27,292 bases of DNA from IMG/VR virus record IMGVR_UViG_3300005541_000285. One strand, given 5' to 3'. The notes beneath the pieces were generated by a model that saw only the letters and a list, made by a program, of their open reading frames with translations, was not told where the DNA came from and ran no database searches. Shown here piece after piece: positions 1-24,031 of this stretch. The position numbers were made by a program, and so were the translations under genes. This DNA comes from a virus (taxonomy: Duplodnaviria > Caudoviricetes). Within the stretch, counting starts at the first letter, position 1. Each line of letters begins with the position of its first letter.

Positions 1-237
1 CTACAGCGCCGGTGTCTGCCCTAGCGAATAGACTGCGTACAATACCAACGTTGAAGCGGCCGCGTCCGGATTGTCCGGGGTCGGCAGCGTCAGCGGCACA
101 TCCCAGCTCGCCGGCAAACCCAAGGCTGCACGCGTAAGGGGCGTCAGTGCGATGATCGCGGCTACCGGCGCCGGCAACCCTACCGTGTTGCGCGGAAGAT
201 AGACCAATGAAAAAATCCCGCCATTCGCATCGACCAT
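1..237 (-). CDS. Small hypothetical protein after the tail fibre gene (78 aa, MVDANGGIFSLVYLP...)
   Basis: C-terminal part of ORF 1..459. ATG at 237 is preceded by AGGAG. The upstream part of the ORF overlaps the fibre gene in another frame. Stop TAG at 1-3. Confidence 0.6.
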   Translation of the reverse strand: MVDANGGIFSLVYLPRNTVGLPAPVAAIIALTPLTRAALGLPASWDVPLTLPTPDNPDAAASTLVLYAVYSLGQTPAL

Positions 238-254
238 TAATCCAGCTCCTGTAG

Positions 255-857
255 CTAAAAGCCCACCGCGATCCAGTAAAAGCCGGTGAGACCGGCCTTC
301 GTTCCGCTCGCCACCGCGACCGTGCCGCTGCCATCCCAGTCGGAGAAAAAGCTGATTGAATTTCTGCCCAGCGGCGTTACCGTCTCGAGCGCCAACGCCG
401 AATTTATCAGTGCCCCATCGCCCGCCGTATTGTTCGTAGCGTAAAACCCGCCCGCCCACTCATTGGCGTTGCTGAAAGCGCTCGGCAGCGTCACGGTGAA
501 GACCGCGTTCTCGACGCCACCTCCGGCCAACCCGGCAAATGAATAAAATCCCCATTGGATTATCATTTGTATCTGCCCGCGGCTGACGTCGGCAAAGGGC
601 ACGGCAATATAGCCATTCTGACCCATCGAGCCGCTGAACAGCGCCTCGAAGGCCTGTAGAAGCCCGATATTCGCTATATTTGTGTCCTGCCGTCCCTTTA
701 TGTACGAGGTCCGATTAGCCAACTGCTGATGAGGCTGATTACTCAGACCGATTCCGCCGAAACCCGCGCCGACCGCCGCTCCCTCCACCGCATCGGTCTG
801 CTGAATCTCATAAATCTCATTCGCACTGAACTCCGGACTATCGATTAATGTCGCCAT
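255..857 (-). CDS. Short tail fibre / receptor-binding protein with gp53-like C-terminal domain
   Basis: N-terminus IYEIQQTDAVEG...GLSNQPHQQLANRTSYIK is a typical myophage fibre N-terminus. C-terminus has GYI...IIQWG...VTLPSAF...FYWIAVGF. Lies downstream of baseplate J/I. Confidence 0.75.
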   Translation of the reverse strand: MATLIDSPEFSANEIYEIQQTDAVEGAAVGAGFGGIGLSNQPHQQLANRTSYIKGRQDTNIANIGLLQAFEALFSGSMGQNGYIAVPFADVSRGQIQMIIQWGFYSFAGLAGGGVENAVFTVTLPSAFSNANEWAGGFYATNNTAGDGALINSALALETVTPLGRNSISFFSDWDGSGTVAVASGTKAGLTGFYWIAVGF

Positions 858-870
858 CGCCGCGCACCGC

Positions 871-1515
871 CTAGAAGGTTAGCGTCCACGTTCCTGAATA
901 GTTGCCCGCGCCCGTGTACCCGAAGGCCGGCACGCTCACGTGCGCGATCAGTGGTCCCGGCGCCTGATGAAACGCCACCAATGTCCAGGTCACGCTGCCG
1001 TCCGTCGTCGTCCCGTTCAGCGTCGTTGACCATCCGGGCGCAGCGCCACCCGTCGTCCCGCTGATCGTGCAGCGCTGCACATTACCGTCACCATCCACCA
1101 GCAGGTTGCCCACCACCTTGGCCGCTCCCGCCGTCCATGACGGATTTGAACTCCCCTGCACGGCGGGCAATGCCACATTTGCCGAGTTCGCAAACAATCC
1201 CAGTTCCTGAATCGTCACGCCGTTCGCGCCGTAATCGGTCGTCAGCAATGAGTAGTTGAACTCAACGCTCCCACTGGATGGAAAGGTGTGCGCCCCGACG
1301 CCGTTATAGTAAGCCGGGGCCGCCGCTAGTCCGGTGTCGGTTACCGCCGGGGCCGTTGCCCCCGAGCCGAAGCCCACCGCACTGACGTACTGTCCGGAGG
1401 TGATTCCAGCCACCAGGTTCGCCAACGCCGGCAGCCCGGCATTGACGAAGATGTTGCTGCACTCCCAGATGATCCGTCGCCGCTCATATAAACGCACTAT
1501 TCCTGTTGGCCGCAT
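871..1515 (-). CDS. Tail collar/fibre-attachment-like protein with inserted Trp/Thr-rich putative carbohydrate-binding module
   Basis: NIFVNAG...AVGFGSGATAPAVTDTGL...IQELGLF...WTLTF pattern of collar-type proteins. Position between gpI and the fibre. Confidence 0.65.
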   Translation of the reverse strand: MRPTGIVRLYERRRIIWECSNIFVNAGLPALANLVAGITSGQYVSAVGFGSGATAPAVTDTGLAAAPAYYNGVGAHTFPSSGSVEFNYSLLTTDYGANGVTIQELGLFANSANVALPAVQGSSNPSWTAGAAKVVGNLLVDGDGNVQRCTISGTTGGAAPGWSTTLNGTTTDGSVTWTLVAFHQAPGPLIAHVSVPAFGYTGAGNYSGTWTLTF

Positions 1516-1625
1516 AACTTTCCTCGATTCCCTCGCATATCTGCGACACGCGCCGCACTGCTATCTCACTAAGCGATGCCCGACTGCTGCCGGCAATCGC
1601 TCATCGCCTTCCTGTTTCTCCACGC

Positions 1626-2459
1626 TTAGCCATTCGCCGAGATTGCCGCGCCCTGCACCACGACTCCCGAGTCCGCAACCACAGGCTCATTCGCCCCATA
1701 AGTAATTCCGGCATGATAGAAGTGTTTGGCGTAGGTCGGCATTATCGACTTGCTGTCGGCGACCGGCCATGCCATCGCGCTAATCTGATCCGTCGGCGCA
1801 GGCGCGTTGTCATTCTGCTTGAAAATGCTCACGACGGTATCCAGCGGGACCGGCGTGAAATCCTTCACTCCCGCCAGATTCAACCAGAGCGAATCCAAAT
1901 ACGCCCGCACAGGCTTGAAGAAATTCACCGCCGCGATAATCCGGGCCGGATCACCCGCGCCCACCGGCTGATTAATCTGATTGATTACGACGCGAAAGAC
2001 CGCCCAGCCCTCGCTCGTCGGATATTGCGATCCGCCCCAGCTCGCCTGCCCTTCCTGCAGCGTAACCTCATTCCAGCCAAGCGCCGCCAATGCAGTCTTT
2101 ATCGCGTAGGGTGTCCCTCGTGTTCGATGAAGTGGAATCGCCGCGCCGAGCAGCGTGCGCAACGACGTATAATCCGATACTCCCGCCGCATCCGCGGTTG
2201 AACTCAGTGTATCGATGTCAGTCAGCGAGTCGATATCCGTCAGCGCATCGATTGATTCACCACTGCTCGATCCCAGTTGCCATTGCGGCGCCAGCATGTC
2301 GAACTGCCACGCCAGCAACAGCAAACTGCTGTCAGGCGCCGAGTCCAGCCGATACACGAGCGTCGGGCTCAGATCGAGCGCTCCCAGCCGCTGCGTCAGT
2401 TGCAACAGCGCCTGGCCACGCACGTCATTGATCGACGGTTGAACGGTTAGGGATGCCAT
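1626..2459 (-). CDS. Phage tail protein I (P2 gpI-like baseplate wedge)
   Basis: LLLLAWQFD, AIPLHRTRGTPYAIKTAL and FFKPVRAYL motifs. Follows gpJ. Confidence 0.85.
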   Translation of the reverse strand: MASLTVQPSINDVRGQALLQLTQRLGALDLSPTLVYRLDSAPDSSLLLLAWQFDMLAPQWQLGSSSGESIDALTDIDSLTDIDTLSSTADAAGVSDYTSLRTLLGAAIPLHRTRGTPYAIKTALAALGWNEVTLQEGQASWGGSQYPTSEGWAVFRVVINQINQPVGAGDPARIIAAVNFFKPVRAYLDSLWLNLAGVKDFTPVPLDTVVSIFKQNDNAPAPTDQISAMAWPVADSKSIMPTYAKHFYHAGITYGANEPVVADSGVVVQGAAISANG

Positions 2460-2464
2460 CGGCT

Positions 2465-3634
2465 TCAGCTATGGATTGGCCCGGTTGCCTGCGACAAAGC
2501 AATTGACGTGCAATTCGCCCACTGTCCGGCCGATAGCGGCGTATATGACGGCGAAGTGAGCGTAACCTCATACACCCCTGACACCGATACTGCCTCGATT
2601 ATCTGACTCGGCACGATGTCCCGCTGAATCCGCGAGGCCAGCGCTACTGCAAACGCTTGCACCGCGGCGCTAGCGGCCGCCATAGTCGCCACCGGATCAG
2701 CGTCAGTGTACAGCGTTAGCGTCCCAGCAATCTTATAATCAACTTCCGCCACCGGCAGCACATTAACCGTGTCAGTCAGCGGTCTTACGCTGTCGGCGCT
2801 CAGCGCGCTGAGCACGTTGCTTAGTAGAGTCCCGCCCGCTATGCCGGCATTGTTCGGCGCTGGCGCGGGTTGAGTATTGATCGGGCCTGTCAGTACAAAC
2901 ACTGTCACCTGGCCCGGCGCTGGGGAAACGACTTGTGCGTCGATTATCGCGGGGTCGGCCCCTAGCGCGAAAAATCGATACGCCCCCTCCGGACCTGCCA
3001 CGCTGAATTCGTTCGGCGCCGCCTGAATCCGCGTCCGCAAGTGATCGTCAGTCTCCGGCGCCGAGCCTCCGCTACTGACGGCAGTGTTGGCGACCGACGC
3101 GATTAGCACGCTCGGATTCAGCTGGATGCTGATTTGCCCGGCCAAATACCCATTCGCGCCCGAACCAGTCGCTGTCGCCGTCGCCGCGACGTTGCCGCTC
3201 GATTGGCCGGCCGCGATCGTCATTGCCTGGTCAGTCGTAAATGTATACTGTCCGTCCGAGCTTCCCACCGGCGTACCCGCTGGCACCGTGTAGGATACCG
3301 GTAGCGTTGCCGCTAGCGTAAATTGCAGCGTCGTCACCGCGCTCTGCGCCGTCAGACGCGTGACGCCCAACAATTGACCCAGGTAATCGATCATCGGAAA
3401 CGTTGCGTAGGCCAGCAGATTCTGTTGCCCCGCATACTGTATCGCGTTGCGCACCAGCGACTCGCGATACGCGTATAGATTGATCAGCAGACGCTCCACC
3501 TGCGCCGGCTGTAATGTCCGGCCCGCTGCCGTCTCGAACTCGGCAATCATGTCCGCCAAGATCAAGTTGGGATCGAGGCCGTCGGCATCGTTGACGAACA
3601 CCGGCGGCGGTAGGGTTGGAATAGCCGCTCCCAT
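2465..3634 (-). CDS. Baseplate J/gp47 family protein
   Basis: GGSAPETDDHLRTRIQAAPNEFSVAGPEGAYRFFA and VRPLTDTVNV motifs. Confidence 0.92.
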   Translation of the reverse strand: MGAAIPTLPPPVFVNDADGLDPNLILADMIAEFETAAGRTLQPAQVERLLINLYAYRESLVRNAIQYAGQQNLLAYATFPMIDYLGQLLGVTRLTAQSAVTTLQFTLAATLPVSYTVPAGTPVGSSDGQYTFTTDQAMTIAAGQSSGNVAATATATGSGANGYLAGQISIQLNPSVLIASVANTAVSSGGSAPETDDHLRTRIQAAPNEFSVAGPEGAYRFFALGADPAIIDAQVVSPAPGQVTVFVLTGPINTQPAPAPNNAGIAGGTLLSNVLSALSADSVRPLTDTVNVLPVAEVDYKIAGTLTLYTDADPVATMAAASAAVQAFAVALASRIQRDIVPSQIIEAVSVSGVYEVTLTSPSYTPLSAGQWANCTSIALSQATGPIHS

Positions 3635-3699
3635 CAGAGCCTGCTCCTCTTATCGATTGTTTCTGCGTCCACGATGCCTACAACTCATCGCGCGCCTGT

Positions 3700-4167
3700 T
3701 TAAAAACCTTGCGCCGCGGGAATTATGTTTACTTGGGTCACCTGTGGCGCGTTGGTAATGCTTCCCGCGCTTCCCTGCGCGCCCAGTTTTAGTCGCCAGG
3801 TTGCAGCCACACTTAAATGAGCGCCTGATTGCGTCGACCCGCCGACCACTGGCGCCACGGTTACCCCAATCAACTCAATTCGGGGCTCCCAGCGGATGAT
3901 CGCTTCAGTTACCTCCCGCACAATCGCCGCAGTGGCTACGTTGATTGGATAATCCACATATTTCCATAAATCGATGGCGAATGTCGGGCGTAATGGGTCT
4001 GATCCCTTCGGTGTCGTTAGAATTATCTGGACGCACTGATTAACATCCTGCAGCGCCTGAACGACGTTTCCGATCCCGGCGCCCGCTGCGCCGCCCGCGG
4101 TCGAGTCCAGCATCAAGGACCAGTCCGCCGAAGTGATATCCCCGAGAGTAATTGCGCCGGCGGGCAT
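3700..4167 (-). CDS. Baseplate wedge gpW/gp25 family protein
   Basis: QCVQIILTTPKGSDPLRPTF...EAIIRWEPRI motif. Confidence 0.9.
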   Translation of the reverse strand: MPAGAITLGDITSADWSLMLDSTAGGAAGAGIGNVVQALQDVNQCVQIILTTPKGSDPLRPTFAIDLWKYVDYPINVATAAIVREVTEAIIRWEPRIELIGVTVAPVVGGSTQSGAHLSVAATWRLKLGAQGSAGSITNAPQVTQVNIIPAAQGF

Positions 4168-4206: not shown

Positions 4207-4746
4207 CTATTCGGACAGTACTTTCACGCTCGCGCTGGTTATCGTTCCCGTCCCGGCAGGACAGGTCACCGAATCCCCCAGGCGCGCCACGCCTCTTAGT
4301 GGTGCGGTCCCTAGATTAATCAACCTCTGGGCAACCACGTTAACGTTGCCTGCGGCGTCGATGTTGATCTCCGCGCCGCTCGCCGTTACGTTTACAGTAC
4401 CCCCTGAAGGAAGCGTGATCGCCAACGCGTGCTGCGAACGATCATACTCGAAGGCCGCCCCGTCCTTGGCGCTCCAATGCAATTTGTCCGCGGTCATGCC
4501 TGGCGGTGGGGTATCCACCGTCGAATAGATCGCGCCCAGAACCGCCCCGTCTTCATCAAATTCATCCATCAAGCACACGACCTGCTCTCCGATGTCCGGA
4601 AGGAAATAGCCCTTATCACTTTGGCTCTTTAACACCATCACAGGCAGCCACCAGCTCTGCATTTGGTCGCGATCCGGAAACGTCACTCGCACGCGGCATC
4701 CCGCAGCATCCTGCGCCTGCACTATTCCAACGCGAAACGCGCTCAT
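4207..4746 (-). CDS. Baseplate spike protein V
   Basis: Start reassigned to ATG at 4746 (MSAFRVGIV), which has a GAGAGGGG RBS. Motifs RVRVTFPD...SWWLPV...LPDIGEQVVCL...GAVLGAIYS and DGAAFEYDR. Confidence 0.9.
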   Translation of the reverse strand: MSAFRVGIVQAQDAAGCRVRVTFPDRDQMQSWWLPVMVLKSQSDKGYFLPDIGEQVVCLMDEFDEDGAVLGAIYSTVDTPPPGMTADKLHWSAKDGAAFEYDRSQHALAITLPSGGTVNVTASGAEINIDAAGNVNVVAQRLINLGTAPLRGVARLGDSVTCPAGTGTITSASVKVLSE

Positions 4747-4784
4747 GTTGAGCCCCTCTCGGCCGTCCTTCGCCACTCTCGAAT

Positions 4785-5813
4785 TCACCCCGTCGACGCG
4801 ACAGAACTGCGTAACTGTCTCGCGGACACCTCGGTTGTATAGCCACTCGACCGGGTCAACCGATGGCGCGCCAACTCGATAAGGTAGTTTCCGTCGTTCA
4901 CGCCAAACCCCGTAAGGGTGATTACGTTCCCGGCAACCAACGTCGTCGACCCTGGCGCTTTCAACCTCGCAGTCCGCTGCTTCGCGTTCATATCGTGCAA
5001 CACGCTCTGTGCTTTGAGAAGTGCCTGTTCGATGGTCTCGCAACGCGCGACCATCTTGACTGTGTCGCCGGTCGGCGCTTGCATCGCTGACGTTACGCTT
5101 TGCGTTATCAGTTCCTTGGTGTACGGCTGCTGATAACTCACCTGTGCATCTTTGAAAATTTCATGTGTCTTGTTCGTAAAGCCGAATGTCAACAAGTCCG
5201 AGCGCCCTAATACCATCGCGGGCGTACTGCTTTCTAAAGTAGAGATCGCGTAAAATACCATTTGCGTTCCGCGTACCGTGAACTCATAACCTTGGGCTTT
5301 GGCGAGACGTCGCAAAAACTCCAGATCCGTCTCTTGTCTCTGCGTTATGCGCTCGAACGCAACGTTGAGCGAATTATCGGCCCCAATTACACTTAGGGAG
5401 TACTTGCTGGCGATCGTAGCCGCTATCTCGGGCAGCGTTTGGTCTTCGTATCCAAGGCTGTTCCGCGTGCGCGTCGCCGGCGTGATCCAGGCTTCCAAAC
5501 AGCGCATGTAAACACTGTCCGGCGGGCCGCTGAGCTCCACTTCATCTACCTCGAAGTCCCCGCAGGGCAGCAGGACGTCCCGTTCGTATCCTAGGAGCAG
5601 GGTCAACCGATCACCCAGTTGCGGAGACCACGGTCCTTGCCACAACTTTTGGTGATCCTCGAGCGTGACTTCAATCTCGCTCGCCGCGCCTTCTAACCGG
5701 TCTTCATAGGTAATTCCGGTGACCATCGACGAAATGTCCGCCGTGATGTTGACGCCTTGATAGGTTAATACCCATTGCGGCGCTCTTACCGCATACCCGA
5801 GTGCAGCGCTCAT
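4785..5813 (-). CDS. Late control D / baseplate hub protein
   Basis: ITYEDRLEGAASEIEVTLED, GEFEVDE-like CGDFEVDEVELSGPP, RITQRQETDLEFLRRLA and GNYLIELARHRL...GYTTEV motifs. Confidence 0.9.
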   Translation of the reverse strand: MSAALGYAVRAPQWVLTYQGVNITADISSMVTGITYEDRLEGAASEIEVTLEDHQKLWQGPWSPQLGDRLTLLLGYERDVLLPCGDFEVDEVELSGPPDSVYMRCLEAWITPATRTRNSLGYEDQTLPEIAATIASKYSLSVIGADNSLNVAFERITQRQETDLEFLRRLAKAQGYEFTVRGTQMVFYAISTLESSTPAMVLGRSDLLTFGFTNKTHEIFKDAQVSYQQPYTKELITQSVTSAMQAPTGDTVKMVARCETIEQALLKAQSVLHDMNAKQRTARLKAPGSTTLVAGNVITLTGFGVNDGNYLIELARHRLTRSSGYTTEVSARQLRSSVASTG

Positions 5814-5860
5814 TCAAGTTCTCTAGCCAGGAGACCGTTGCATTCTGCCGCCTAGCCGCA

Positions 5861-6085
5861 TCACAATGCGGGCTTCCAGGGCGGCAAATTCGCGGTCTGA
5901 GCTTGGCTTACCTGCAGAAGTGGAATTGCCAGAATTATTCCGGAATCAAAGACTGCGGATATTGGGACTTGCGGATTCGCCATAATTATCGAAGTGTACA
6001 ATGTTGGGTCGCCGTAATATGCCCACGCCAGCAAATCCCACCGCTCACCCGCGAGGGTCGTGTGGCTTATGTACTGCGATGCCAT
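5861..6085 (-). CDS. Tail protein X (LysM-like)
   Basis: GERWDLLAWAYYGDP...IIMANP...LPPWK motif. Confidence 0.9.
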   Translation of the reverse strand: MASQYISHTTLAGERWDLLAWAYYGDPTLYTSIIMANPQVPISAVFDSGIILAIPLLQVSQAQTANLPPWKPAL

Positions 6086-6097
6086 TTGACCTGACTT

Positions 6098-6754
6098 CTA
6101 GGTTGCTGCGCGCACAATTGCGCTCGCAAGAATGTCCGACGGCATACTCTGGGAAATCACGGGAGCAGTGCTCGGATTAGCCAACAATGGTGACACCCCA
6201 ACTGTTGCGAACGAAGGAGCTAGGTAGGCAGTAGCGGTGGTAGGGCTTTGTGAGGACACTCCGGAAGGCATGCTGTAGCCAATTGCGCCGGTTACGCCTC
6301 CCACCGGAGCGGGCACTACTGCGATTGGCGCGAACGAGGGTAACGGCAGCAAAGTCGGGTTCAGCTCGCTGGTGAGTGCCCACTGTTTCAGATCCACTCG
6401 AACAGTGGCTGACAACATGTCGCCCTGATCACTCATTTGCTTTGCAACTATTTCGAGTGTGGTAATTACGAAATACCCTCGGTGATCACCGTTGCCAAAC
6501 ACTAAAGCACGCGCCTGATGGTCGGCCGCCGCGGTTTCCAGAGCCGCGATCTGCACCGTCGGATTGCTGAATGAGGTATGAAACAGCATCTCGAGACTGA
6601 TTGCTTCGAGCCCGTACCCAATCCATTGCAGTCTCGGCAAATCTTCAATTACCCGCTGCTCGACATAGTTCCAGTGTTGCGCGCGCACCAACCTATTTGG
6701 TGCAGTCAGCGTCGCAAATACGATTTCGCCTAACACTGCGAGCATGACACCCAT
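6098..6754 (-). CDS. P2 gpU-like tail protein with Pro/Ser/Thr-rich C-terminal extension
   Basis: LAVLGEIVF...PRLQWIG...LVFGNGDHRGYFVIT...VDLKQW motif. Lies upstream of X and D. Confidence 0.85.
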   Translation of the reverse strand: MGVMLAVLGEIVFATLTAPNRLVRAQHWNYVEQRVIEDLPRLQWIGYGLEAISLEMLFHTSFSNPTVQIAALETAAADHQARALVFGNGDHRGYFVITTLEIVAKQMSDQGDMLSATVRVDLKQWALTSELNPTLLPLPSFAPIAVVPAPVGGVTGAIGYSMPSGVSSQSPTTATAYLAPSFATVGVSPLLANPSTAPVISQSMPSDILASAIVRAAT

Positions 6755-8338: not shown

Positions 8339-8515
8339 TCAGTCTCTTTCTGCCGAGCGATCCAACTCTCGGCCGCGCTCGGCGATCTGCCACCAATAAG
8401 CTGCCTCGGTGAGACTCATTTTCTTCAACTCCGCGAGACAAAATCCAAATGCGATTAATTCTGCGATTGCTTCTGCGCTCAGGAGGCTGCGCTGGACGCT
8501 CCTGGCGCCGCCGGA
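8339..8515 (-). CDS. -1 frameshift extension of the tail chaperone (E'/T segment), giving a 145-aa fusion from start 8775
   Basis: Slippery A AAT TTT at 8521-8515. The -1 frame reads SGGARSVQRSLLSAEAIAELIAFGFCLAELKKMSLTEAAYWWQIAERGRELDRSAERD*, which resembles P2 GpE'. Not in the ORF track. Confidence 0.8.
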   Translation of the reverse strand, partial: SGGARSVQRSLLSAEAIAELIAFGFCLAELKKMSLTEAAYWWQIAERGRELDRSAERD

Positions 8516-9442: not shown

Positions 9443-9503
9443 GCGTCGGTTCCTCGGTCTTTGCTACTTTAGTTGGCTGTTCACTCGGGAGCGTCCCGCT
9501 CTT

Positions 9504-12173: not shown

Positions 12174-12176
12174 TGC

Positions 12177-13680: not shown

Positions 13681-13711
13681 GGGTACCTGCCCTTGAGAGA
13701 AACTCGCTTAC

Positions 13712-14410: not shown

Positions 14411-14493
14411 TGTTCCACCGTGTGAGATCAGATTTGTTGTTCGCCGCAATTGCCAGCGTCGCTAACCAAGTAGTTCAGTTTCGCACTTGAAGA

Positions 14494-15603: not shown

Positions 15604-15612
15604 CACTCGGCG

Positions 15613-15658
15613 ATTCTCCCAGTTCATTCGCGATTCTACTAGGGTGAAATGTTTCACC
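15613..15658 (-). promoter_or_regulatory. Putative Mor/C-activated late promoter (PI equivalent)
   Basis: Perfect palindrome GGTGAAA-TG-TTTCACC at 15643-15658. A -10-like GAGAAT lies 22 nt downstream of the shared 16-mer on the minus strand. Confidence 0.65.
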
Positions 15659-15698: not shown

Positions 15699-17102
15699 CT
15701 ATACACTCGACGCCGTGCTGTCGCCGTGCTCCGCGCTCAAGCCGGCCGGCCGCAAGACCGGATCATTCGCCACTGCCGCCGCCAGCCCGAGCTTCTCGAG
15801 CACCGCCTTCTGGCTGACGCGCAGCCCGCGATCGGCCAGTTCCGCCACGATATCCGCGAACACCTTGACGTCCTGATCGTCCGGCAGCGCGAGTTCCAGC
15901 TGTGGATAGCGCCGCTGCGGTCCCGCATTCAGGTCGATCAGCGGCCGCAGAAGATCCCGCGTCAGCGTCGCTCCCAGCCGCTGGGCATCCGCGCCCAGGA
16001 TGTCCCGCCGCACCATCTGATGAACCTGCGCGGCCGCCCGCGACCCGCCGCCGCGCGGCAGTTCGGTCGTCAGCGTCTGACCCAGCACCGCTTTGCTCAG
16101 TTGCCGATCTATATACTCAGTGAAGCGCTCATATAGATCAGTGCTGCCCGATTGCCGCGCTTGCGTAAACTCGATTATCATCGAATCCGGAATTATGGCG
16201 GCCGCGTCGGTCCCGATATTGCCGACCGCCTGCAGCAGCGCGCTCTTGTCGTTCTCAGTCGCGCCCGCACCGTACTTGCCGAGCCGCAGCGGCTGCCCGA
16301 AGACCTCCGCGAACGTCACCCAGTCCTTCAGCACGTAATTCTTGAACAGGTAAGCCCAGGCTGCTGCCCGCGCCAGACCTCCGCGAATCGGCAGGCCGCT
16401 CTTGGCTTGTCCGTAATGCACCACGAACTTGAAGGGCGCCAGCGGCGCCGTCAGCGGCTGTGCCCCGATGCCCCCAGCGTTGCGCGCGACCCGGCCCGCA
16501 GGCAGGAGCCGCGCGTCCACATGTGTATAGCCACTGTCCGTAGTTTGCGGTATCGATTGACCCTCGCCTTGCAGAGTGCGCACCAGTAGTTCGCGTCCCG
16601 AGATCCAGTCGAACAAAAACCAGCGCGGATCCCGCCACAACAGCCGCGTCGGATACCATTCGGCGCCCGCGGTATCCCAGATGATCTCAGTCGCGGAAAA
16701 GCCTTTGCCGATGGCGTCGAGCATGTCGAACAGGGCCTCGCGCAGATTCAAGGTGCCCTGCAGCAGAAACTCACTCGCCATCGCCGCCAGCCGCACATCC
16801 GCCGCCGAATTCGACGCCGGCCTGATTACTACATCCAATTGCGCCACGGCCTGCTTGCGCGTCCCCAGCACCGCGAGGTAGTGGAGATCCTTCTCCTCCA
16901 TCTCCTCTGCCAGCTCCAGGTACAGAAACGGATCGCCGAATTCAGCCTGACGCAGCAGTCCGGTCAGCTTCTCCGGAGTCAGCCCGGCCGCCGGATGCAT
17001 TACTGAATATATATTTCGCACGCCGGCCAGAGTCGGACCGGCCTGCTCTTCGCGTAGCTGCCTGGTTTCGACCTCGCGGCCGTAGGCATCATACAGGCTC
17101 AT
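15699..17102 (-). CDS. Mu gp29-like portal protein (DUF935)
   Basis: LAEEMEEKDLHY..VLGTRKQAV, LDAIGKGFS..EIIW, FKNYVLKDWVTFAEVFGQPLRLGKY and SKAVLGQTLT motifs. Confidence 0.95.
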   Translation of the reverse strand: MSLYDAYGREVETRQLREEQAGPTLAGVRNIYSVMHPAAGLTPEKLTGLLRQAEFGDPFLYLELAEEMEEKDLHYLAVLGTRKQAVAQLDVVIRPASNSAADVRLAAMASEFLLQGTLNLREALFDMLDAIGKGFSATEIIWDTAGAEWYPTRLLWRDPRWFLFDWISGRELLVRTLQGEGQSIPQTTDSGYTHVDARLLPAGRVARNAGGIGAQPLTAPLAPFKFVVHYGQAKSGLPIRGGLARAAAWAYLFKNYVLKDWVTFAEVFGQPLRLGKYGAGATENDKSALLQAVGNIGTDAAAIIPDSMIIEFTQARQSGSTDLYERFTEYIDRQLSKAVLGQTLTTELPRGGGSRAAAQVHQMVRRDILGADAQRLGATLTRDLLRPLIDLNAGPQRRYPQLELALPDDQDVKVFADIVAELADRGLRVSQKAVLEKLGLAAAVANDPVLRPAGLSAEHGDSTASSV

Positions 17103-17293: not shown

Positions 17294-18850
17294 TCACCAC
17301 GCCCCCGCGAGCGTTCGCAGGCGGCCGCCGCGCCGCAGCGCCGACAGCTCGTCACCGGCAGCCGTTCCATCCCAGAGGTCCGTTCTTTGTTCCGACCGGT
17401 GGGCGCGCGCCGCGGCGCGATACTCATACGCCGCCGGCGTCACCGTGCTGGCCCAATGCGCAAGCGCCGCCGCGATCGCGCTGTCGCCGTGCCGCCGACC
17501 GCCGTCCGTGTCATGTCCCCGTCGTTCCGGCGCCCGCGCAATCCCGCGCTCGAACACCAGCGCCCGATGGTCTTCGAGAATTGCTGCATCGCGCGGCAAG
17601 TCGATCAAGTCGTCCTCAAACGCCGCTTTGTAACGCGGCATATTGTCGCGATACCACTCGGCCGTCAGCATCACCTGCTGAATTTTTGCGCCATAGCGCT
17701 GCATCGCCCGTTCGGCCAGAAACTGGCCATTCCCCCGCGCATCCATCGCCCCCGCGGTAAAGCACGGCAGCCGGTCGACCACGTAGAAGAAAATCTCTTC
17801 CTGTTGGGTGAACGGTATGTTGCGCAGCTCGACCACAAACGGCGTATGCCGCCGCAGGCGCTCGCTCAGTTGCAGCGGCCAGATCACCGTCAGATCACCC
17901 GAGCGCCCGAAGTCCTCCCCAACAAAGCTCAGCGCGTCCGCACGCAACCCTGCGAGAGCCGGCGCAATCTGCTCGGCGCAAAAATCCGCCGCCGCCCGCT
18001 GACGCTCCTTTTCCGGCCGCTGCGCGAATTCTGCCGGCATCGCCCAGCGCGCCACCGGCGCCCCCGGCCGCATCCGCGCTTCGATCAGCGCCGACGGCAG
18101 AAACGCCCCGCCGCTGGCCCGCGGCACGCAGTCCAACTCCTCCTCGGCGTCCTCGCCGTACTGCGCGAATACCTCCTCGCGCCACGCCGCCTCCGCCGCG
18201 GCGCTCCACGGCCGGCCGTTTTTCGCGCAAATCCGATGAAACAGCCCGTCGCCGATCGCGTCCTCTATAGTCACTCGATGCAGTGAGTAGTGTTTGCGCC
18301 CGGCCCGAATCTCATTAACCAGTTCGTTGAACGGATTCGCCGCCCCGTTATGCGTCGAGATCACCCGCACCTGCCCGCCCCACAGCGTAAACGCCAGCGC
18401 CGCCTTCAGCAGCCCGCGCAAATCGTCGTGAAACGCTGCCTCGTCGATCACCGCACGTCCCTGCTTGCCACGCAGGCTCGACGGCCGCGACGACAGTGCG
18501 ACGATCTTCCGTCCCGAGCTGAAGCGCACCCGGTACGCCACGATGTCGCGCCGCCCATCACCCACCGCCACCTCTTCCACCGCCCGCGCCGCCTTGTCCA
18601 TCTGCCGCGCCCACACCGCCGCGGCCTCAACGAACTCGAGCGCCATCTCCTTGTTGTAACCCAGGTACCAGGTGTCCACGCCGTCGCGCCCCGCCGCACT
18701 GAGCACGCTGTCCGCCGCCTCAGTCCACGTCAGTCCCACCCGCCGCGACTTTTCTGCCACCTTGACCGGCGCGCGGTCGGCCAGCCAGCGCATTTGGTAG
18801 GGCAGCAGAATCGACTTCATGCCCTTCGCTATTTCGCTGACTACCGCCAC
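17294..18850 (-). CDS. Mu gp28-like terminase large subunit
   Basis: LLPYQ..W...EKSRRVGLTW, LRGKQG, Walker B VIDEAAF, ISTHNG, nuclease G.DFGRSGDL and RHGDSAIA motifs. Alternative start is ATG at 18820. Confidence 0.95.
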   Translation of the reverse strand: MAVVSEIAKGMKSILLPYQMRWLADRAPVKVAEKSRRVGLTWTEAADSVLSAAGRDGVDTWYLGYNKEMALEFVEAAAVWARQMDKAARAVEEVAVGDGRRDIVAYRVRFSSGRKIVALSSRPSSLRGKQGRAVIDEAAFHDDLRGLLKAALAFTLWGGQVRVISTHNGAANPFNELVNEIRAGRKHYSLHRVTIEDAIGDGLFHRICAKNGRPWSAAAEAAWREEVFAQYGEDAEEELDCVPRASGGAFLPSALIEARMRPGAPVARWAMPAEFAQRPEKERQRAAADFCAEQIAPALAGLRADALSFVGEDFGRSGDLTVIWPLQLSERLRRHTPFVVELRNIPFTQQEEIFFYVVDRLPCFTAGAMDARGNGQFLAERAMQRYGAKIQQVMLTAEWYRDNMPRYKAAFEDDLIDLPRDAAILEDHRALVFERGIARAPERRGHDTDGGRRHGDSAIAAALAHWASTVTPAAYEYRAAARAHRSEQRTDLWDGTAAGDELSALRRGGRLRTLAGAW

Positions 18851-18909
18851 TGGCTATTACTCACTGTTCTAAGCGCCGCGGAATCCGGAGCGTCAGTTGG
18901 TCTCTCGAC

Positions 18910-19470
18910 TCACTTCGTAACTTCCAGCAACGCGTTGCGGATCGCCTCGGTCGTCTCCGGCGTCAGCCCCCCACCGTCCTTAGCCACCGCTTCTACCAGC
19001 TTCGCTTCGGCCTTCACCGCCCTCGCCTTGAGCAGGACCCGCCACTCTTCAACCGACTTGCGATGCATGATCGTCGCGCGGCTCATCTGCGCCACGCTCG
19101 TTGCCAGTGCGCCCAGGTTGATCTGCTTGGCCTTCGCCGGCGTCAGTTCGATCAGCACGGCGAACAGTTGTTGTTGCACCAGCCGCAGCATCGCTTCTGT
19201 GATCTGGCAGTCGTCGTCCGGCGCCGCCTCGAGCAACGCCCGCGCCTGCGCCGTCGCCCGCTCCAGCGCCGCCATCTTGCCCTCTAGTTGGTTGCCGTAT
19301 TTCTGCACCGATTGGCGGCTGATGATGCAGCCCTGGGTTCTTAGCCACGCGCTCAGCTCGGTGTAGCCGCTGAAGTTGCGCTCGACCAGCCGCCGGTCCA
19401 GCTCGGCCCGCAGCTCCGGCGCCAGGGTTCTTAAGATTCCTCGTGAAGACATAACCTGCGGCACTCTCAC
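18910..19470 (-). CDS. Mu gp27-like (DUF3486) putative terminase small subunit
   Basis: L..ELRAELDRRLVERNFSGYTELSAWL...G..ISRQSVQKYG...GLTPET.EAIR pattern. GTGA overlap with the upstream gene. Confidence 0.85.
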   Translation of the reverse strand: MRVPQVMSSRGILRTLAPELRAELDRRLVERNFSGYTELSAWLRTQGCIISRQSVQKYGNQLEGKMAALERATAQARALLEAAPDDDCQITEAMLRLVQQQLFAVLIELTPAKAKQINLGALATSVAQMSRATIMHRKSVEEWRVLLKARAVKAEAKLVEAVAKDGGGLTPETTEAIRNALLEVTK

Positions 19471-19784
19471 CAGTAGCGCTTCGGCCGCGCCACGCCGGGC
19501 GGCGCCGGCGCCGTATACTCAACCAGGTCAACGCCGTCCGCGGTCAGCTTCGCGTACCAGCTCCCGTCGTCTTCCTGCCCCACCTCGGCCAGCTTGAGAT
19601 CGCTCAAATAGTCCAGCTCGCGCCGCACGCCGGCCGGCCCCAGCCCCAGTCGCAGATCGTCCAGCACCCGCAGGATGATCTCCTCGCCCACTCCGATCGG
19701 CCGCCCGGCGTCCAGAATCCGCAAAATCCGCCACCGCGCTTCTTCCCGCTGCCTTTGTCCCATGTCCATAGCTCGTTTACTCAT
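19467..19784 (-). CDS. Mu gp26-like winged-helix protein
   Basis: RWRILRIL...VRRELDYL...AKLTADGVDLVEY....PGVARP pattern. ATGA-coupled and directly upstream of gp27. Confidence 0.8.
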   Translation of the reverse strand: MSKRAMDMGQRQREEARWRILRILDAGRPIGVGEEIILRVLDDLRLGLGPAGVRRELDYLSDLKLAEVGQEDDGSWYAKLTADGVDLVEYTAPAPPGVARPKRYW

Positions 19785-20134
19785 TTCAGCGCCTCTTCCG
19801 CGCCGCCCATCCCGCCGCGCTCATATAGCCTTTCGCGCAGTTCTGAGATTTCCATCCGCATCTCTGCACGCAACGCATCGAGCTTCGCCTCGAGCGTATT
19901 ACTGAACCTAATCCAGTCCTCGCGCCGCACGTAATCCACCGGCAATTGCGCCTTCAGCTTCAGCAACTCGCGCTCGACCGCGTGCGAAAACTCACTCCCG
20001 TCGCGGCTCAGCGTCGCGAGTCGATTACCCATTTCCCTCCCGTACTGACCCAGCAGCCAGCGCAACGCCGCCAGGTTAAGCCCGATTAGGGTCACAAAGG
20101 CCAGCGCGAAGGTCGCAATCGCATCCCAGTTCAA
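19781..20134 (-). CDS. Membrane-anchored coiled-coil protein in the Mu gp25 position
   Basis: N-terminal hydrophobic helix and LKAQLPVDYVRREDWIR...EAKLD motif. TTG start with GGGAGA RBS. Confidence 0.7.
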   Translation of the reverse strand: MNWDAIATFALAFVTLIGLNLAALRWLLGQYGREMGNRLATLSRDGSEFSHAVERELLKLKAQLPVDYVRREDWIRFSNTLEAKLDALRAEMRMEISELRERLYERGGMGGAEEALK

Positions 20135-20379: not shown

Positions 20380-20616
20380 TCAGTGCTCCGTCGGCTCTGT
20401 CGACTCCTTGAGCTTGACTGCGGCCGACATCGCCAGGAGCACCGTCGCCAGCCCAGCCCCATATGCCGCCGCATCCGTCGCGTTAAAATGCCCGTGGCCG
20501 AATACCGCCGCCGCCCAAAACACCACGTAGGCGCCGGCCCCCAGGACGCCCACAATCCGCGCGGCGTCATAGGTTATGTTGTCCTTGCCGGTCAGGGCAT
20601 CCTTCAGCCATTTCAT
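20380..20616 (-). CDS. Small two-TM membrane protein, holin candidate
   Basis: 78 aa with two hydrophobic segments and a charged C-terminus, located in the lysis cassette. Confidence 0.6.
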   Translation of the reverse strand: MKWLKDALTGKDNITYDAARIVGVLGAGAYVVFWAAAVFGHGHFNATDAAAYGAGLATVLLAMSAAVKLKESTEPTEH

Positions 20617-20643
20617 AGTATTCGCGTCCGCTTACCCAATTGA

Positions 20644-20967
20644 CTATTTATGTGCCTGCGTCGCCGCCTGGCCTTGTACCGGCGCCGGCGGCGCCGCGCA
20701 GCCCGCAATTAGCGTGTCGCGCTCGCGCACCGCCCCCTTGAGGATTATGACCGTCGCCGCGTAACTCCGGAGCGTCTCCGCCGGGCTTGAGCCCGTGCGC
20801 AACGCGCCGATCGGCAGGACCGGCCGCGCCGGCGGCGGCGCCGCGCAATAGACCGGTCGATCGACCGGGATGCGCACCTCGACCGGCTCGGCGGGCGGCA
20901 GAAATGGCGGGGCGGACGCGCAGCCTGCAAGCTGGATCAGGATCAGCGGGAGGAGGCGCCTTACCAT
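20644..20967 (-). CDS. o-spanin (Rz1-like lipoprotein)
   Basis: Start at ATG 20967 gives MVRRLLPLILIQLAGC, a signal peptide with lipobox. Pro-rich with Cys residues. Overlaps the i-spanin 3' end. Confidence 0.8.
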   Translation of the reverse strand: MVRRLLPLILIQLAGCASAPPFLPPAEPVEVRIPVDRPVYCAAPPPARPVLPIGALRTGSSPAETLRSYAATVIILKGAVRERDTLIAGCAAPPAPVQGQAATQAHK

Positions 20968-21359
20968 CGTCCCAGCTCCGGTCCCTGCGCGTCGCCCCAT
21001 GCAATAGCTCCCATGCAGCCGTCAGGCACAGTTGTGCGGCTGAGCGCCGCCGCTTGCGCCGCCGCCTGCTGCTCAATTTGCGCCCCGCTGCGCGCCGCCG
21101 CCACCGCCCGCGCCGCCGCCGCTTGCGTCGCCGCCGCCGCGCGCGCCGTCAAATCTGTTAACGCGGCGTTCTGATGCTCGACCGCGGCTTTCATCGCCTG
21201 ATTCGTCGCGCTCAATCCGGCCAGCTCGGCCTCCAGCGCAACGCTTTGCCTCCGCGCCGCGTCGCGCTGATGCACCAGCAGGGCGCGATAACCCACTAGC
21301 GCCCCGACCAGTGCGATCAGCGCCAGCGGCTTCCACATGCTGCCTATTAGCAACGGCAT
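20961..21359 (-). CDS. i-spanin (Rz-like)
   Basis: N-terminal TM, Ala-rich coiled coil and a C-terminal Cys. Immediately upstream of the lipoprotein. Confidence 0.78.
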   Translation of the reverse strand: MPLLIGSMWKPLALIALVGALVGYRALLVHQRDAARRQSVALEAELAGLSATNQAMKAAVEHQNAALTDLTARAAAATQAAAARAVAAARSGAQIEQQAAAQAAALSRTTVPDGCMGAIAWGDAQGPELGRW

Positions 21360-21410
21360 TGCGACATCGCCTCTTTCCTGCTCAGCCTTCGGCCTGCCTG
21401 CCGCGGCCTT

Positions 21411-21725
21411 CTACTTGCCCGCCGTGATTGCGGCATTGTGCTCGACCGCCGCCGCCACCGTCGCCGCCCCATGATCGTCCACCGCCGCCGCGTGCTTGCT
21501 GATCGCCCCGGCCAACTGCTCGATCGCGGCCGCATGATGATCCGTCGCCGCCGCGTGCGCGTTGCCCCTTCCGCTCCCGACCGTATGCTCGAGCCGTCCG
21601 AGCCGCGTTTCGAGGCTTTTCAGCAAGGCCGCCGCCTCCGCCTCAAGCTTGCGCCCATACAGCGTCCCCAGCATGAAGCCGCCCAGCGCCGTCACTACGT
21701 AACCGCCGATTTCTGCGTAATCCAT
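21411..21725 (-). CDS. Single-TM Ala/His-rich protein in the lysis cassette
   Basis: ATG at 21725 with AGGAG RBS. TM segment IGGYVVTALGGFMLGTLYG is followed by a predicted coiled coil. Confidence 0.6.
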   Translation of the reverse strand: MDYAEIGGYVVTALGGFMLGTLYGRKLEAEAAALLKSLETRLGRLEHTVGSGRGNAHAAATDHHAAAIEQLAGAISKHAAAVDDHGAATVAAAVEHNAAITAGK

Positions 21726-21793
21726 CTCGCTCTCCTGTAAGCGTTTCTTCAAATGGGCCCGCGCGCCGCGCCGCAGGTAGTTTCGTCACTGAT

Positions 21794-22345
21794 TTATTCG
21801 TAGGCCCGTCGCAGCCACCCGGCCAGAAACCGTTCACGCTCCGCCGCCTCCCGGCTGCGCCCAGCCGCGATCTCGCGATAGACTCCCGCCGCCTCCGAAC
21901 GCAGCGCCGCCAGCAACGCCTCGCCATCCACCGCGGCCGCCGCCGCCCGCGTCGCCGGCCCCAGGACGCCGTCCTCCCCCACCTCGTGCCCGCAGGCCCG
22001 CAACGCCCGCTGAACACACCGCGCCGCCGGCTCCGGCCCCAAATTCACCGCCAAATTGAAAAGTTTGCTGCCAATCGCCGCCGGCAGCGCACTGTAGTCG
22101 TAGCGCGCCCACCAGTCGCGATAATAAATCGCCGCTGCCGCCGTGCGTGTCAGGCCTGCAATATCCACTTCCGGATACTGCCGCTGGCTGATTCCATACT
22201 TGGTCTCGCCGCCGCCATCCGCCGGATCGTCAACCAGCCCGCCCTCATCCCCCAGCACCTGCTCCAGCGCTGCAACAAACGCCGGCGGATAGCTAGTCGC
22301 GAGCCCGCTATCTATCTCTCCCGTCGATGACGCTGCTTCACTCAC
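21794..22345 (-). CDS. Endolysin, glycosyl hydrolase 108 family with peptidoglycan-binding domain
   Basis: EGGLVDDPADGGGETKYGISQR, AIYYRDWW, VQRAL...DGVLGPAT and FLAGWLRR motifs. Start is uncertain (GTG at 22345 preferred). Confidence 0.9.
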   Translation of the reverse strand: MSEAASSTGEIDSGLATSYPPAFVAALEQVLGDEGGLVDDPADGGGETKYGISQRQYPEVDIAGLTRTAAAAIYYRDWWARYDYSALPAAIGSKLFNLAVNLGPEPAARCVQRALRACGHEVGEDGVLGPATRAAAAAVDGEALLAALRSEAAGVYREIAAGRSREAAERERFLAGWLRRAYE

Positions 22346-22353
22346 AGTTCGGC

Positions 22354-22397
22354 AACCTACGCGCAATCGTCAGTCCGCATAAGGGTGAAATGTTTCA
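22354..22397 (-). promoter_or_regulatory. Putative Mor/C-activated late promoter (Plys equivalent)
   Basis: TGAAACATTTCACCCT (22397-22382) is identical to 15656-15641. A -10-like TAGGTT lies 22 nt downstream. Confidence 0.65.
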
Positions 22398-22852
22398 GCC
22401 CCAGCTGCCCGGACAGTCACCCGGTCGGACCCCGGCTGGTCCTCGGCGGACGCCCCGTCGCGTTCACGCGCGGCCCGCTTGAGCGCCGCGCGCCCAGCCG
22501 CCCGTTGCTCCGCCAATACCTGAAACACCCGCCGCCGCGTGCAACCCGCCTCCAGCGCGATCGCATCGATACTCAGCCCGCGCCGCCGCAACTCGTGAAT
22601 CCGCGCGCGCCGCGACGGCGGCCGCGGCACCTCCACACGATCGCCCCCAAACGTCCGCACCAGTTGCGCCGCCGCCACCGCGCCGATTACCCGGTTCAGC
22701 TCCTCCGCCGACGCCGTGCTCAACGGCACGTACAGCCGCGCACCGCCAAACGCCTCAACCAGCTTGCGCGTCGCCTCCTCGCCCACCGCCTCGCGCAGAT
22801 CCTCGAACAGCGAAGTGCGCCGCTCAGCCCCGTGTCCCGTGCTGCCGATCAC
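22370..22852 (-). CDS. Mor/C-family transcription activator
   Basis: VGEEATRKLVEAFGGARLYVP...FGGDRVEVP...GLSIDAIALEAGCTRRRVFQVL pattern. GTG at 22852 with AGGAGG RBS directly after the upstream stop. Confidence 0.85.
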   Translation of the reverse strand: MIGSTGHGAERRTSLFEDLREAVGEEATRKLVEAFGGARLYVPLSTASAEELNRVIGAVAAAQLVRTFGGDRVEVPRPPSRRARIHELRRRGLSIDAIALEAGCTRRRVFQVLAEQRAAGRAALKRAARERDGASAEDQPGSDRVTVRAAGAETFHPYAD

Positions 22853-22853
22853 C

Positions 22854-23231
22854 TCAAACCTCCTTGCCGATGTTCGCCGCGCGCGCCGCGCGCAGTCCAC
22901 ACGCCAATCCCTCCACCAGCCGCGCAAACGTCACATCCGCCGCCTGCCGTTGCACGACCGCCCTACACGCATGCATCACGCTCGAATGATCACGCGCGAA
23001 TGCCAGCCCGATCCGTGGAAACGACGCCCATCTGGCGTGTCGTGTACCGCGATAGGCGCCTTGCGCGCCGCGTTCGCCCGACAAATCCCGGCATAGATAC
23101 ATCGCTACCTGCCGCGCCGTCGCCACCGGCCGCCGCCGGCTGCGCGATAACAGCTCCGCCCGCGTCAGTTGAAAGGCCTGCGCCACCTGTTGCTGAATAT
23201 CGTCAATTAAGCCGAAATCTCGGGTCCCCAT
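22854..23231 (-). CDS. Stand-alone DnaA C-terminal (domain IV) DNA-binding protein
   Basis: IDDIQQQVAQAFQLTRAELLSRSRRRPVATARQVAMYLCRDL...SFPRIGLAFARDHSSVMHA matches the DnaA domain IV pattern. No AAA+ domain. ATG at 23231 preferred. Confidence 0.88.
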   Translation of the reverse strand: MGTRDFGLIDDIQQQVAQAFQLTRAELLSRSRRRPVATARQVAMYLCRDLSGERGAQGAYRGTRHARWASFPRIGLAFARDHSSVMHACRAVVQRQAADVTFARLVEGLACGLRAARAANIGKEV

Positions 23232-23359
23232 AACTTTTTCTACTTTAGTGAAAGACACCGTTATGCCATACTTAAGGCTCAACTACAGTGTATGAACTTT
23301 ATCCGTGATAACTCGCGTTGCGTTGTGGATGGGTAAATATATCCCATAGTAGGAGAATT
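23232..23359. promoter_or_regulatory. AT-rich divergent control region with candidate operators
   Basis: Lies between divergent regulators. Inverted repeats TTATC-CGT-GATAA (23299-23311) and ATGGG-N9-CCCAT (23329-23347). Confidence 0.6.
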
Positions 23360-24031
23360 ATGTCAACAGACGTAGAGAATGAATTTCGCCGACGCCTCCG
23401 CCTGATCATGCAGCAATTCGGCTCAGTGGCTGACTTGGCCAAGGCCGTCGGGGTCTCGGACAACGCAATTTACAAATGGGTCTCAGGACGTGGGCAGCCC
23501 AGCATGACGAGTCTAGTCAGCCTTGCTCAGGCCGCCGGAGTTTCGGTTGAATGGCTCGCCACGGGCCATGGCGGCTCAACCAAAGATCAGATGGACATCG
23601 CGAAAACCCGCAACGTCTCCGCCCCTGCCGTCGTCTCCCTGCCGCGCGAGGTCGTCGCTCTCGCCGAATCAGTTTCCCAGCTCAGAAGCACCCAAATCGT
23701 TGATTACTTGAGCTTTCAGGCCGAATGGTTGCGACGGCAACTCGGAGTCGAGCCCACACAGGTCGCTTTGATCGAAGCGCTCGGCGACGCGATGGCGCCC
23801 ACGATCGATGAGGGCGACCTTTGCCTGATCGACTTGCGCAGCCCGCGTGTCAGGTATGACGGGCTCTATGCGCTGTACGACGGAGTCGATCTTTCAATCA
23901 AACGTCTGCAGCGCGAGCCCGACGGGACGATCACCATTCGCAGCGACAACCCGGCCTATAGCTCGCAGCGGGTGGGCGCCGAAGAAGTCGTGCTGGCCGG
24001 GCGCGTCCTGTGGATTGGCGGCAAAGCCTAG
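23360..24031 (+). CDS. CI/LexA-like repressor (XRE HTH plus S24 domain), catalytic Ser apparently replaced by Ala
   Basis: ATG at 23360 with AGGAG RBS. HTH LAKAVGVSDNAIYKWVSG...GVSVEWLATG. S24 motifs GDAMAPTIDEGD, IKRLQ and IRSDNPAY. Confidence 0.9.
   Translation: MSTDVENEFRRRLRLIMQQFGSVADLAKAVGVSDNAIYKWVSGRGQPSMTSLVSLAQAAGVSVEWLATGHGGSTKDQMDIAKTRNVSAPAVVSLPREVVALAESVSQLRSTQIVDYLSFQAEWLRRQLGVEPTQVALIEALGDAMAPTIDEGDLCLIDLRSPRVRYDGLYALYDGVDLSIKRLQREPDGTITIRSDNPAYSSQRVGAEEVVLAGRVLWIGGKA

Follow-up and report, generated by a model that had tools for sequence, protein, structure and literature searches.

Here we analyzed a 27,292-nucleotide stretch of DNA from IMG/VR virus record IMGVR_UViG_3300005541_000285 (the window), which carries an intact cluster of Mu-type packaging, head, contractile-tail and lysis genes, about 24 kb long, from which the transposition module is absent. 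Reading along the minus strand, the genes follow the order of Mu, from the late activator Mor to the short tail fiber, and the repressor alone lies on the plus strand (Table 1). An earlier note on this DNA had listed terminase, portal, protease, capsid, contractile-tail and lysis open reading frames (ORFs) in that order. We found every gene it named as an open frame with PHROG or Pfam matches, the Mu-type head, neck and late activator being recognized by Pfam, and the spanins it reported were likewise recovered. As it had stated, only two small regulators lie between repressor and endolysin, a helix-turn-helix (HTH) gene and the Mor gene. The DnaA-type HTH is phage-derived, as it follows MuB in the transposase-bearing relative G004 (genomes are labeled G, this one being G000; genera g; contigs C; loci L).

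Host genes bound the cluster at both ends. The repressor ends at 24031 and host folD starts at 24287, which confirms the spacing of 255 bp given in the note. One contig of the source run, possibly the window's own source, spans this junction and matches 11029–24900 without differences, so the junction was assembled from one molecule. The cluster's left end is at about window position 1, with a histidine kinase, an aminotransferase and Tad pilus genes following from position −183. The whole cluster therefore lies inside the window with no early region hidden beyond it, and neither MuA nor MuB was found past the left edge. The note had also seen no recognizable Mu end. Six 300-bp ends of the mini-Mu elements described below gave a single 14-bp match to the cluster, inside a gene, and none at its edges; a diverged end is possible. 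Two traits of transposable prophages, MuA and MuB inside the element and TG...CA ends with a 5-bp duplication at its edges, are both lacking.

The cluster belongs to Candidatus (Ca.) Binataceae, a family of uncultured soil bacteria in which its relatives also occur. The large terminase (TerL) was matched in 98 of 128 family genomes of at least 85% completeness and in 21 of 28 genera, mostly in one copy, including 36 of the 39 genomes of the largest genus. For the cluster itself this number is a maximum: when 51 TerL copies were placed in trees, 41 formed a host-tracking group, which G010 joined in a second tree, and nine belonged to other Mu-like elements or were long-branched. Capsid matches came from 22 of 36 genomes of the family and from none of 24 in other families; the Pfam Mu capsid family was found in 26 of 29 family genomes, compared to 6 of 171 genomes from the rest of the class, one of these six being full length. 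The Mu transposase MuA was present in 27 of the 128 genomes, the family giving 33 MuA matches, and neither G080 (one contig) nor G096 (two contigs) gave any. The family tallies take in up to six unpublished genomes (G006, G075, G076, G153, G156 and G157), and the 22 of 36 also takes in unpublished G022; the trees, the tables of nonsynonymous to synonymous substitution rates (dN/dS) by handle and the gene maps were made without the unpublished genomes, and the 80 named relative loci may include them. The patchy presence at variable sites that marks transposable prophages was not seen. Genus g11 (G016: L061, L238 and L357; G142; G143) carries a different Mu-like lineage, spread over several contigs and with a full tape measure, which is possibly a second domestication.

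The cluster has descended with its host. Trees of TerL plus portal and of RpoB plus partial RpoC, compared over 40 genomes, share 19 of 37 splits, where random sharing has a mean of 0.18 and a maximum of 3 in 1000, and patristic distances correlate at r = 0.83. Fifteen of the 21 strongly supported element splits are found in the host tree. The trees were built by FastTree, with no bootstrap, and kin are not independent. Taken separately over 17 genomes, the head and tail modules correlate with the host at r = 0.46 and 0.74. In 26 chosen pairs, Nei–Gojobori dN/dS was 0.02–0.30 for TerL and 0.05–0.24 for the portal, and the capsid gave 0.05–0.08 in four pairs. Synonymous divergence (dS) of the element, 0.2–1.3, tracks that of rpoB (rho 0.75–0.78), and 185 TerL positions of the packaging motor are near-invariant across 41 cluster copies. 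Vertical inheritance and purifying selection on virion and packaging genes, both features of gene transfer agents (GTAs), are thus present, and the tree congruence and low dN/dS that the note looked for in a host-kept element are borne out. The repressor–Mor gap measures 377–2175 bp in all 34 genomes with both genes on one locus, which is too short for MuA plus MuB, implying that a single loss, early on, removed the early region. Flanks are conserved within genera, and the tail-side flank across five genera. No relative has folD as a neighbor, which overturns the idea of conserved synteny next to that gene. The note's proposal of a domesticated, GTA-like system is borne out in part: a host-kept, Mu-derived, non-replicating cluster is strongly supported, GTA function is tentative, and it is very probable that the cluster is a particle system of some kind kept by the host.

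What the note called a near-complete virion set holds for the named genes and fails for three others. The pilot gpF, expected after the portal, and the tail-completion protein gpG, expected in the neck, are absent from the cluster, and the tape measure is short and degenerate. In the intact relative G149:C22, gpG occupies the neck position where the cluster has a 3-bp gap. A weak gpG-family match on contig C44 of this genome was rejected, as it sits in an unrelated prophage-like region, the second in the genome, at a contig end (G000:C44:43400-57700). The tape measure of 404 amino acids is 15–22% identical to those of 10 relatives. Cluster tape measures span about 260–520 amino acids, compared to about 590–700 in mini-Mu and phage copies and 690 in Mu (PMC11915804, in the text available). 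The body of the protein has a dN/dS of about 0.3–0.75, apparent compensating frameshifts and no bias in third-position G+C (GC3). Its frame is in place in 59 of 66 loci, its C-terminal motif is shared with the full-length mini-Mu tape measures, and the conserved tip is the part that meets the hub and spike in Mu. Seven of 66 loci have no tape measure after the chaperone, and we had read this as loss in several lineages. That reading was mostly wrong: the gene has moved, and a tape-measure-like gene lies between terS and terL in seven genomes of g4, g16, g20 and g23 (L235, L234, L230, L233, L249, L254 and L255), while the G010 cluster still has none. Since gpF and gpG are absent and the tape measure is degenerate, packaging and puncture are under selection and phage-style injection is not. 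The predicted particle probably cannot inject like a phage.

The two identical 16-bp boxes ahead of the endolysin and the protease are real and conserved, and with the chaperone frameshift site they bear out the retained promoters and frameshift signal of the note. This genome has 10 exact box sites, and the reversed-pattern control has 0. A looser pattern gave 12 sites compared to 0–1 in five shuffles, and a fixed −10 element follows 39 of 51 sites compared to 9 in shuffles. Mu-type late control is the basis for assigning the box to Mor, which is predicted to bind it. Outside the window, boxes precede a 993-amino-acid fiber-like gene, two orphan small terminases (TerS) and one operon shared with G002. 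The orphans are of Mu gp27 type (G000:C25:5319-5882 and C14:36595-37104; L382 and L383), and small-terminase matches number six each in G010 and G142. The operon (G000:C26:39579-43844, L384; G002:C20, L407) encodes secreted-looking proteins of no recognized family, one of them with a weak likeness to SGNH hydrolases. In many relatives, host genes lie between portal and protease exactly at box 2, and the two cluster halves in one-contig genome G080 are 1.25 Mb apart. The lack of own replication, with genes over several loci under predicted shared control, is again GTA-like. The exact box occurs in 44 of 128 family genomes, many with one chance-level site, and is near absent in g29, g20 and g27; because of this restriction, other clades likely use a diverged box. 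In G146 (L391-L400) there are 51 exact copies with the −10 element, many ahead of ordinary host genes (PBP1B-like and rsmG-parA-like, by eye), which suggests that genus g13 now uses the box as a promoter element for host genes at large. One guessed RNA run yielded short pieces, 85–98% alike, and no evidence of expression.

The 993-amino-acid protein (G000:C9:23363-26344; L381:3364-6345, minus strand) belongs to a family of 42 proteins with beta-helix and lectin domains. Its homologs end the tail operon in relatives; in G000, G008 and G018 the gene has moved elsewhere together with a box of its own. Thirteen of 15 fiber-like proteins have a signal-peptide-like hydrophobic N-terminus, judged by eye and hydropathy (two are cut short), and all 15 contain 10–30 cysteines, which is unusual for a phage appendage. 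The AlphaFold model of the 993-amino-acid protein has a pLDDT of 38, and Atlas matches, which stayed below 0.9, served as no more than leads. It is possible that this is a secreted appendage that would join the particle at lysis. No report of signal-peptide fibers was found in the literature searched, which consisted largely of papers open without subscription.

The genome-wide search that the note called for gave a mixed answer: three MuA genes are present, each within a mini-Mu element that has ends of its own, lies on other contigs than the cluster and is about 10–13 kb long (L330-L332). These elements carry a repressor, ner, MuA, MuB, GemA, the protease and a full tape measure, with a chaperone in two and TerS plus gp26 in one; capsid, portal, TerL and sheath are absent from all three. 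The protease is 66–69% identical to that of the cluster over its N-terminal domain. A matching duplication suggests that mini-Mu 3 inserted into the end of mini-Mu 2. Two extra TerS matches and a cI match on contig C29 proved not to be mini-Mu. Thirty of the 128 family genomes gave a match to a full tape measure, and 13 of 20 such loci from relatives have transposase and tape measure without virion shell genes; some of the capsid-less loci carry a hub, Mor, TerS fragment or fiber homolog. Of nine relatives tried for 5-bp duplications, G025 and G092 show convincing ones and G089 and G155 less convincing ones, and in five none was found. An inverted-repeat scan for element ends was swamped by chance pairs, and no viral contig matched the mini-Mu tape-measure query. 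Being mobile, self-replicating elements that lack capsid, portal, TerL and sheath, the mini-Mu elements are probable phage satellites, widespread in the family. The classification covers MuA loci other than those in G034, G061, G064, G070, G072, G106, G110, G114, G129, G015, G030 and G118 and the second copies in G004, G079 and G149, where flanking DNA is short; coordinates suggest that G106 and G072 hold fuller prophages (MuA, TerS and gpF) and G061, G064, G129 and G010 mini-Mu elements. Small Kelch-repeat proteins adjoin the protease gene in three mini-Mu elements (L351, L353 and L355), and a Dam methylase and a MutL-like ORF occur in those of G025 and G112.

P4 and PICI/SaPI satellites resemble the mini-Mu elements in size (10–14 kb), in having their own replication or integration genes, in TerS-like and head-assembly genes and in lacking a virion of their own. 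The mini-Mu elements differ in their MuA/MuB transposase, TG...CA ends, 5-bp duplications, full tape measure and chaperone. A possible intact helper exists in G149:C22 (L242, L333 and L334), a near-complete Mu-like prophage with ner, MuA, MuB, gam, gemA, gpF, gpG and a full tape measure. Its head and early genes diverge from the repressor, and its gpF is fused to an ADP-ribosyltransferase domain.

Among cultured phages, BcepMu and phiE255 are nearest to the cluster, with TerL 56% identical to both. Like these and Mu, the cluster has Mu-type TerS, TerL, portal, protease, capsid, gp36 and gp37 plus Mor, and its neck of portal, gp36 and gp37 is that of the Mu structure in the available part of PMC11915804. 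Unlike them, it has no ner, MuA, MuB, gam, gemA, Mu ends, gpF or gpG, its tape measure is shorter than that of Mu, and it is inherited with the host. With the GTAs (RcGTA, BaGTA, VSH-1, Dd1 and VTA) it shares vertical inheritance, purifying selection, absence of replication genes, a short tape measure, and a multi-locus layout with scattered fiber and packaging genes, while differing in its Mu ancestry, contractile tail and Mor activator. GTAs are described as multi-locus and vertically inherited in the text available of PMC11841831. In RcGTA the periplasm receives the ejected DNA, competence genes are required and the tape measure is about 216 amino acids long, and the neck and tail parts given in the available portion of that source include no tail-completion protein (PMC7296036).

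We tentatively favor, at slightly under an even chance, the reading that this chromosomally inherited Mu-derived cluster builds DNA-filled particles that package host DNA and acts as a GTA. Domestication is well supported, the analysis having established gene content, vertical descent, selection, the losses, the promoter boxes and the build of the mini-Mu elements; we infer particle production, packaged content, delivery and gene transfer. Relief of the cI-type repressor would switch on the HTH gene and Mor, which would bind the late boxes in the cluster and at the scattered loci (the relocated fiber-like gene and the two extra small terminases). As there are neither replicated copies nor Mu ends to start from, TerS and TerL would load the heads with chromosomal DNA, and the resulting particles would be short-tailed, contractile and filled with host chromosomal DNA. 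The endolysin, holin and spanins would then lyse the producer cell. With gpF and gpG gone and the tape measure reduced to a spacer whose tip alone is conserved, the DNA would come free before reaching the cytoplasm and enter by way of ComEC, DprA and ComM of the recipient, as in RcGTA. The mini-Mu elements may exploit these particles or those of related phages. The genes comEC, dprA and comM are present in this genome; they do not discriminate, because cluster-less G013 and most control genomes have them as well.

Several points weigh against a GTA. The system is known here from its genes, with no observed particle, packaged DNA or transcript. GTA particles carry near-random host DNA in pieces shorter than their own encoding genes, and the sequence gives no sign that the head could not hold the whole cluster. 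Genera g8 (0 of 6), g9 and g30 have no TerL match, and the one match in six genomes of g19 is of another lineage. Portal and protease are deleted in G106, the protease is cut in G020, no endolysin or spanin match was found in G002, and the G010 cluster has neither chaperone nor tape measure; some gene breaks in damaged relatives may be assembly errors. Three strong splits conflict with the host tree (G030 and two inside g29). Between G000 and G002, dN/dS is near 0.8 for TerS and Mor, and dS of the tail genes is about twice that of the head genes; with the tree conflicts, this doubling indicates that some exchange occurred. The lost functions also matter. Among the 128 family genomes, 10 have gpF and 4 a member of the gpG family, and gpF follows the portal in all 20 ordinary Mu-like loci that reach from portal to capsid; gpG queries match 8 of these 20, making the gpG test the less sensitive. 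Tail-completion proteins lead the DNA into the cytoplasm; Mu defective in gpG is recorded as non-infectious, and SPP1 particles that lack their tail-completion protein shed DNA outside the cell (PMC11099176, in the part available). Loss of gpF and gpG with a degenerate tape measure is as compatible with a killer or decoy as with a GTA that depends on recipient competence.

PBSX of Bacillus subtilis is likewise a host-kept, repressor-controlled system with capsid, contractile tail and lysis genes and no replication, and Mu-derived R-type tailocins are domesticated contractile tails with a lysis cassette and a Mu-like origin. The cluster could be a PBSX-like killer, its DNA-filled heads on contractile tails puncturing related strains, with the DNA as passive cargo and variable fibers setting the target. 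The retention of capsid, sheath, tube, spike, baseplate and lysis genes without replication, the loss or relaxation of gpF, gpG and the tape-measure body, and the mosaic fiber-like proteins (21–37% identical) all suit such a particle. Yet terminase, portal and capsid are selected as strongly as the tail, and the extra small terminases kept behind late boxes suggest that packaging matters. Tailocins normally drop terminase, portal and capsid, whereas the cluster keeps and selects its head and packaging genes. It differs from PBSX in its Gram-negative host, Mu-type head and dispersed regulon. We consider the killer reading rather unlikely, and the parallel with RcGTA (short tape measure and periplasmic ejection) leads us to favor a GTA over it. 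Alternatively, the cluster and the mini-Mu elements might form a two-part transposable virus, in which the cluster is maintained chiefly as a helper residing in the host. The elements bring MuA and MuB, a TerS-like protein, the protease, the chaperone and, in the full tape measure, a gene degraded in the cluster, and the capsid-less loci of relatives, their ends and their occasional Mor, hub or fiber homologs point the same way. This is improbable: most cluster genomes keep the cluster without MuA, weak trees place most copies of the mini-Mu protease, hub and Mor near those of free phages and apart from the cluster clade, one mini-Mu sits in cluster-less G123, the mapped elements supply no gpF, the gpG family is too rare, and G149:C22 offers an intact possible helper.

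An anti-phage trap, in which the Mor of an incoming Mu-like phage triggers the cluster and its spare small terminases, short tape measure and lysis genes ruin phage assembly or kill the cell early, is a shade more improbable still. Its appeal lies in the close kinship with Mu-like elements of the same family, the orphan TerS behind a box and the fast evolution of TerS and tape measure, but the cluster's own repressor, activator and full virion set of about 30 genes exceed what a trap needs, and neither of the free relatives, G149:C22 and G004, has the exact box. Slow decay of an ordinary defective prophage would account for the whole-genus losses, the damage in single genomes and the degenerate tape measure. 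Against it stand presence in single copy across the family, trees that agree with the host's, dN/dS well under 1 at the dS reached here, conserved frameshift site and promoters, and genes that moved with their own promoter boxes; this reading is very improbable and largely refuted. A bolder and rather doubtful proposal is that a Mu ancestor split in two and became fixed in the family, leaving a Mor-controlled, multi-locus contractile-tail GTA with secreted disulfide-rich fibers and, as satellites replicating by transposition, mini-Mu elements that restore infectivity by supplying a terminase subunit, the protease and a full tape measure.

If the GTA reading is true, Mu would be a new origin of gene-transfer particles. 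GTAs outside the alphaproteobacteria are hard to find because of their likeness to broken prophages, according to the text available of PMC11841831. A whole soil-bacterial family would offer a comparative case with a Mu ancestor, a contractile tail, a named activator in Mor and a box that lists its regulon. That the pilot, tail-completion and tape-measure functions went together predicts which parts a phage gives up when it is no longer infectious, and this pattern could serve as a genome screen. Eighty IMG/VR contigs match the capsid, and at least some are likely host loci rather than viruses. The mini-Mu elements, small jumping elements in the same genomes that may hijack particles, would, if satellites, move by replicative transposition. 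No Mu-derived GTA, Binatota GTA or natural mini-Mu satellite was found in the literature searched.

Table 1 Features of the cluster, its flank and the mini-Mu elements (window positions unless a contig is given).
Feature	Position	Strand	Evidence or remark
78-amino-acid ORF, last cluster gene, after short fiber	1..237	-	55% identical homolog, same place in G002
Short tail fiber, 200 amino acids	255..857	-	weak PHROG tail-fiber matches; conserved in 12 aligned genomes
Tail-fiber-associated protein	871..1515	-	phrog_5417/4176; in 18 loci
Baseplate wedge: P2 I-like, J-like, gp25/W-like	1626..4167	-	PF09684, PF04865, PF04965
Spike (start likely near 4750), hub gpD, tail X, gpU	4207..6754	-	PF04717, PF05954, PF05489, PF06995
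Tape measure, short, fast-evolving, 404 amino acids	6809..8023	-	conserved only in last ~50 amino acids
Tail assembly chaperone, -1 slippery heptamer 8515-8521	8479..8775	-	heptamer and open -1 frame in 61/66 related loci
Tail tube and contractile sheath (Ig-like insert in sheath)	8924..11258	-	PF04985, PF04984/PF17482
Neck: gp37 terminator and gp36 adaptor, 3 bp apart, gpG absent between	11337..12635	-	PF09646, PF07030
Major capsid protein and decoration-like protein	12724..14449	-	PF10124, phrog_1731
Protease/scaffold gpI (ORF limits; true start downstream of box)	14494..15657	-	PF10123
Late-promoter (predicted Mor) box 2	15641..15656	-	cluster splits here in many relatives
Portal, then protease directly, no gpF	15699..17102	-	PF06074
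Large and small terminase	17294..19470	-	phrog_2, PF11985
Mu gp26-like and gp25-like small genes	19467..20134	-	phrog_436, phrog_462; each in 41 loci
Holin-like small membrane protein, family c36	20380..20616	-	61-80% identity to relatives; role inferred from position and hydrophobicity
Spanins: o-spanin lipoprotein 20648-21000, i-spanin 20961-21359	20648..21359	-	Rz-like PHROG matches; lipobox-like sequence, homologs
Single-pass membrane protein, lysis region	21411..21752	-	homologs in same place
Endolysin (GH108 and PG_binding_3)	21794..22366	-	
Late-promoter (predicted Mor) box 1	22382..22397	-	
Mor/C-family late activator	22370..22927	-	PF08765, phrog_836
DnaA C-terminal-type HTH	22854..23282	-	PF08299
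cI-type repressor (HTH and S24 peptidase)	23318..24031	+	
Host folD, flank outside the system	24287..25192	+	
Mini-Mu 1	G000:C41:26090-38960		12.9 kb, TG...CA ends, 5-bp duplication
Mini-Mu 2	G000:C17:6523-16561		
Mini-Mu 3	G000:C17:1-6521 with C2:1-5495		split across contigs

Within the cluster, cross-matches indicate that an Ig-like module recurs in the sheath, gp37 and the decoration protein (window 9504-14449). The tail half has a lower G+C content (0.54–0.60) than the head half (0.62–0.70). Most relatives have an RNA-recognition-motif protein (PF00076; L030:14576-14899) between chaperone and tape measure, which is absent from the window.

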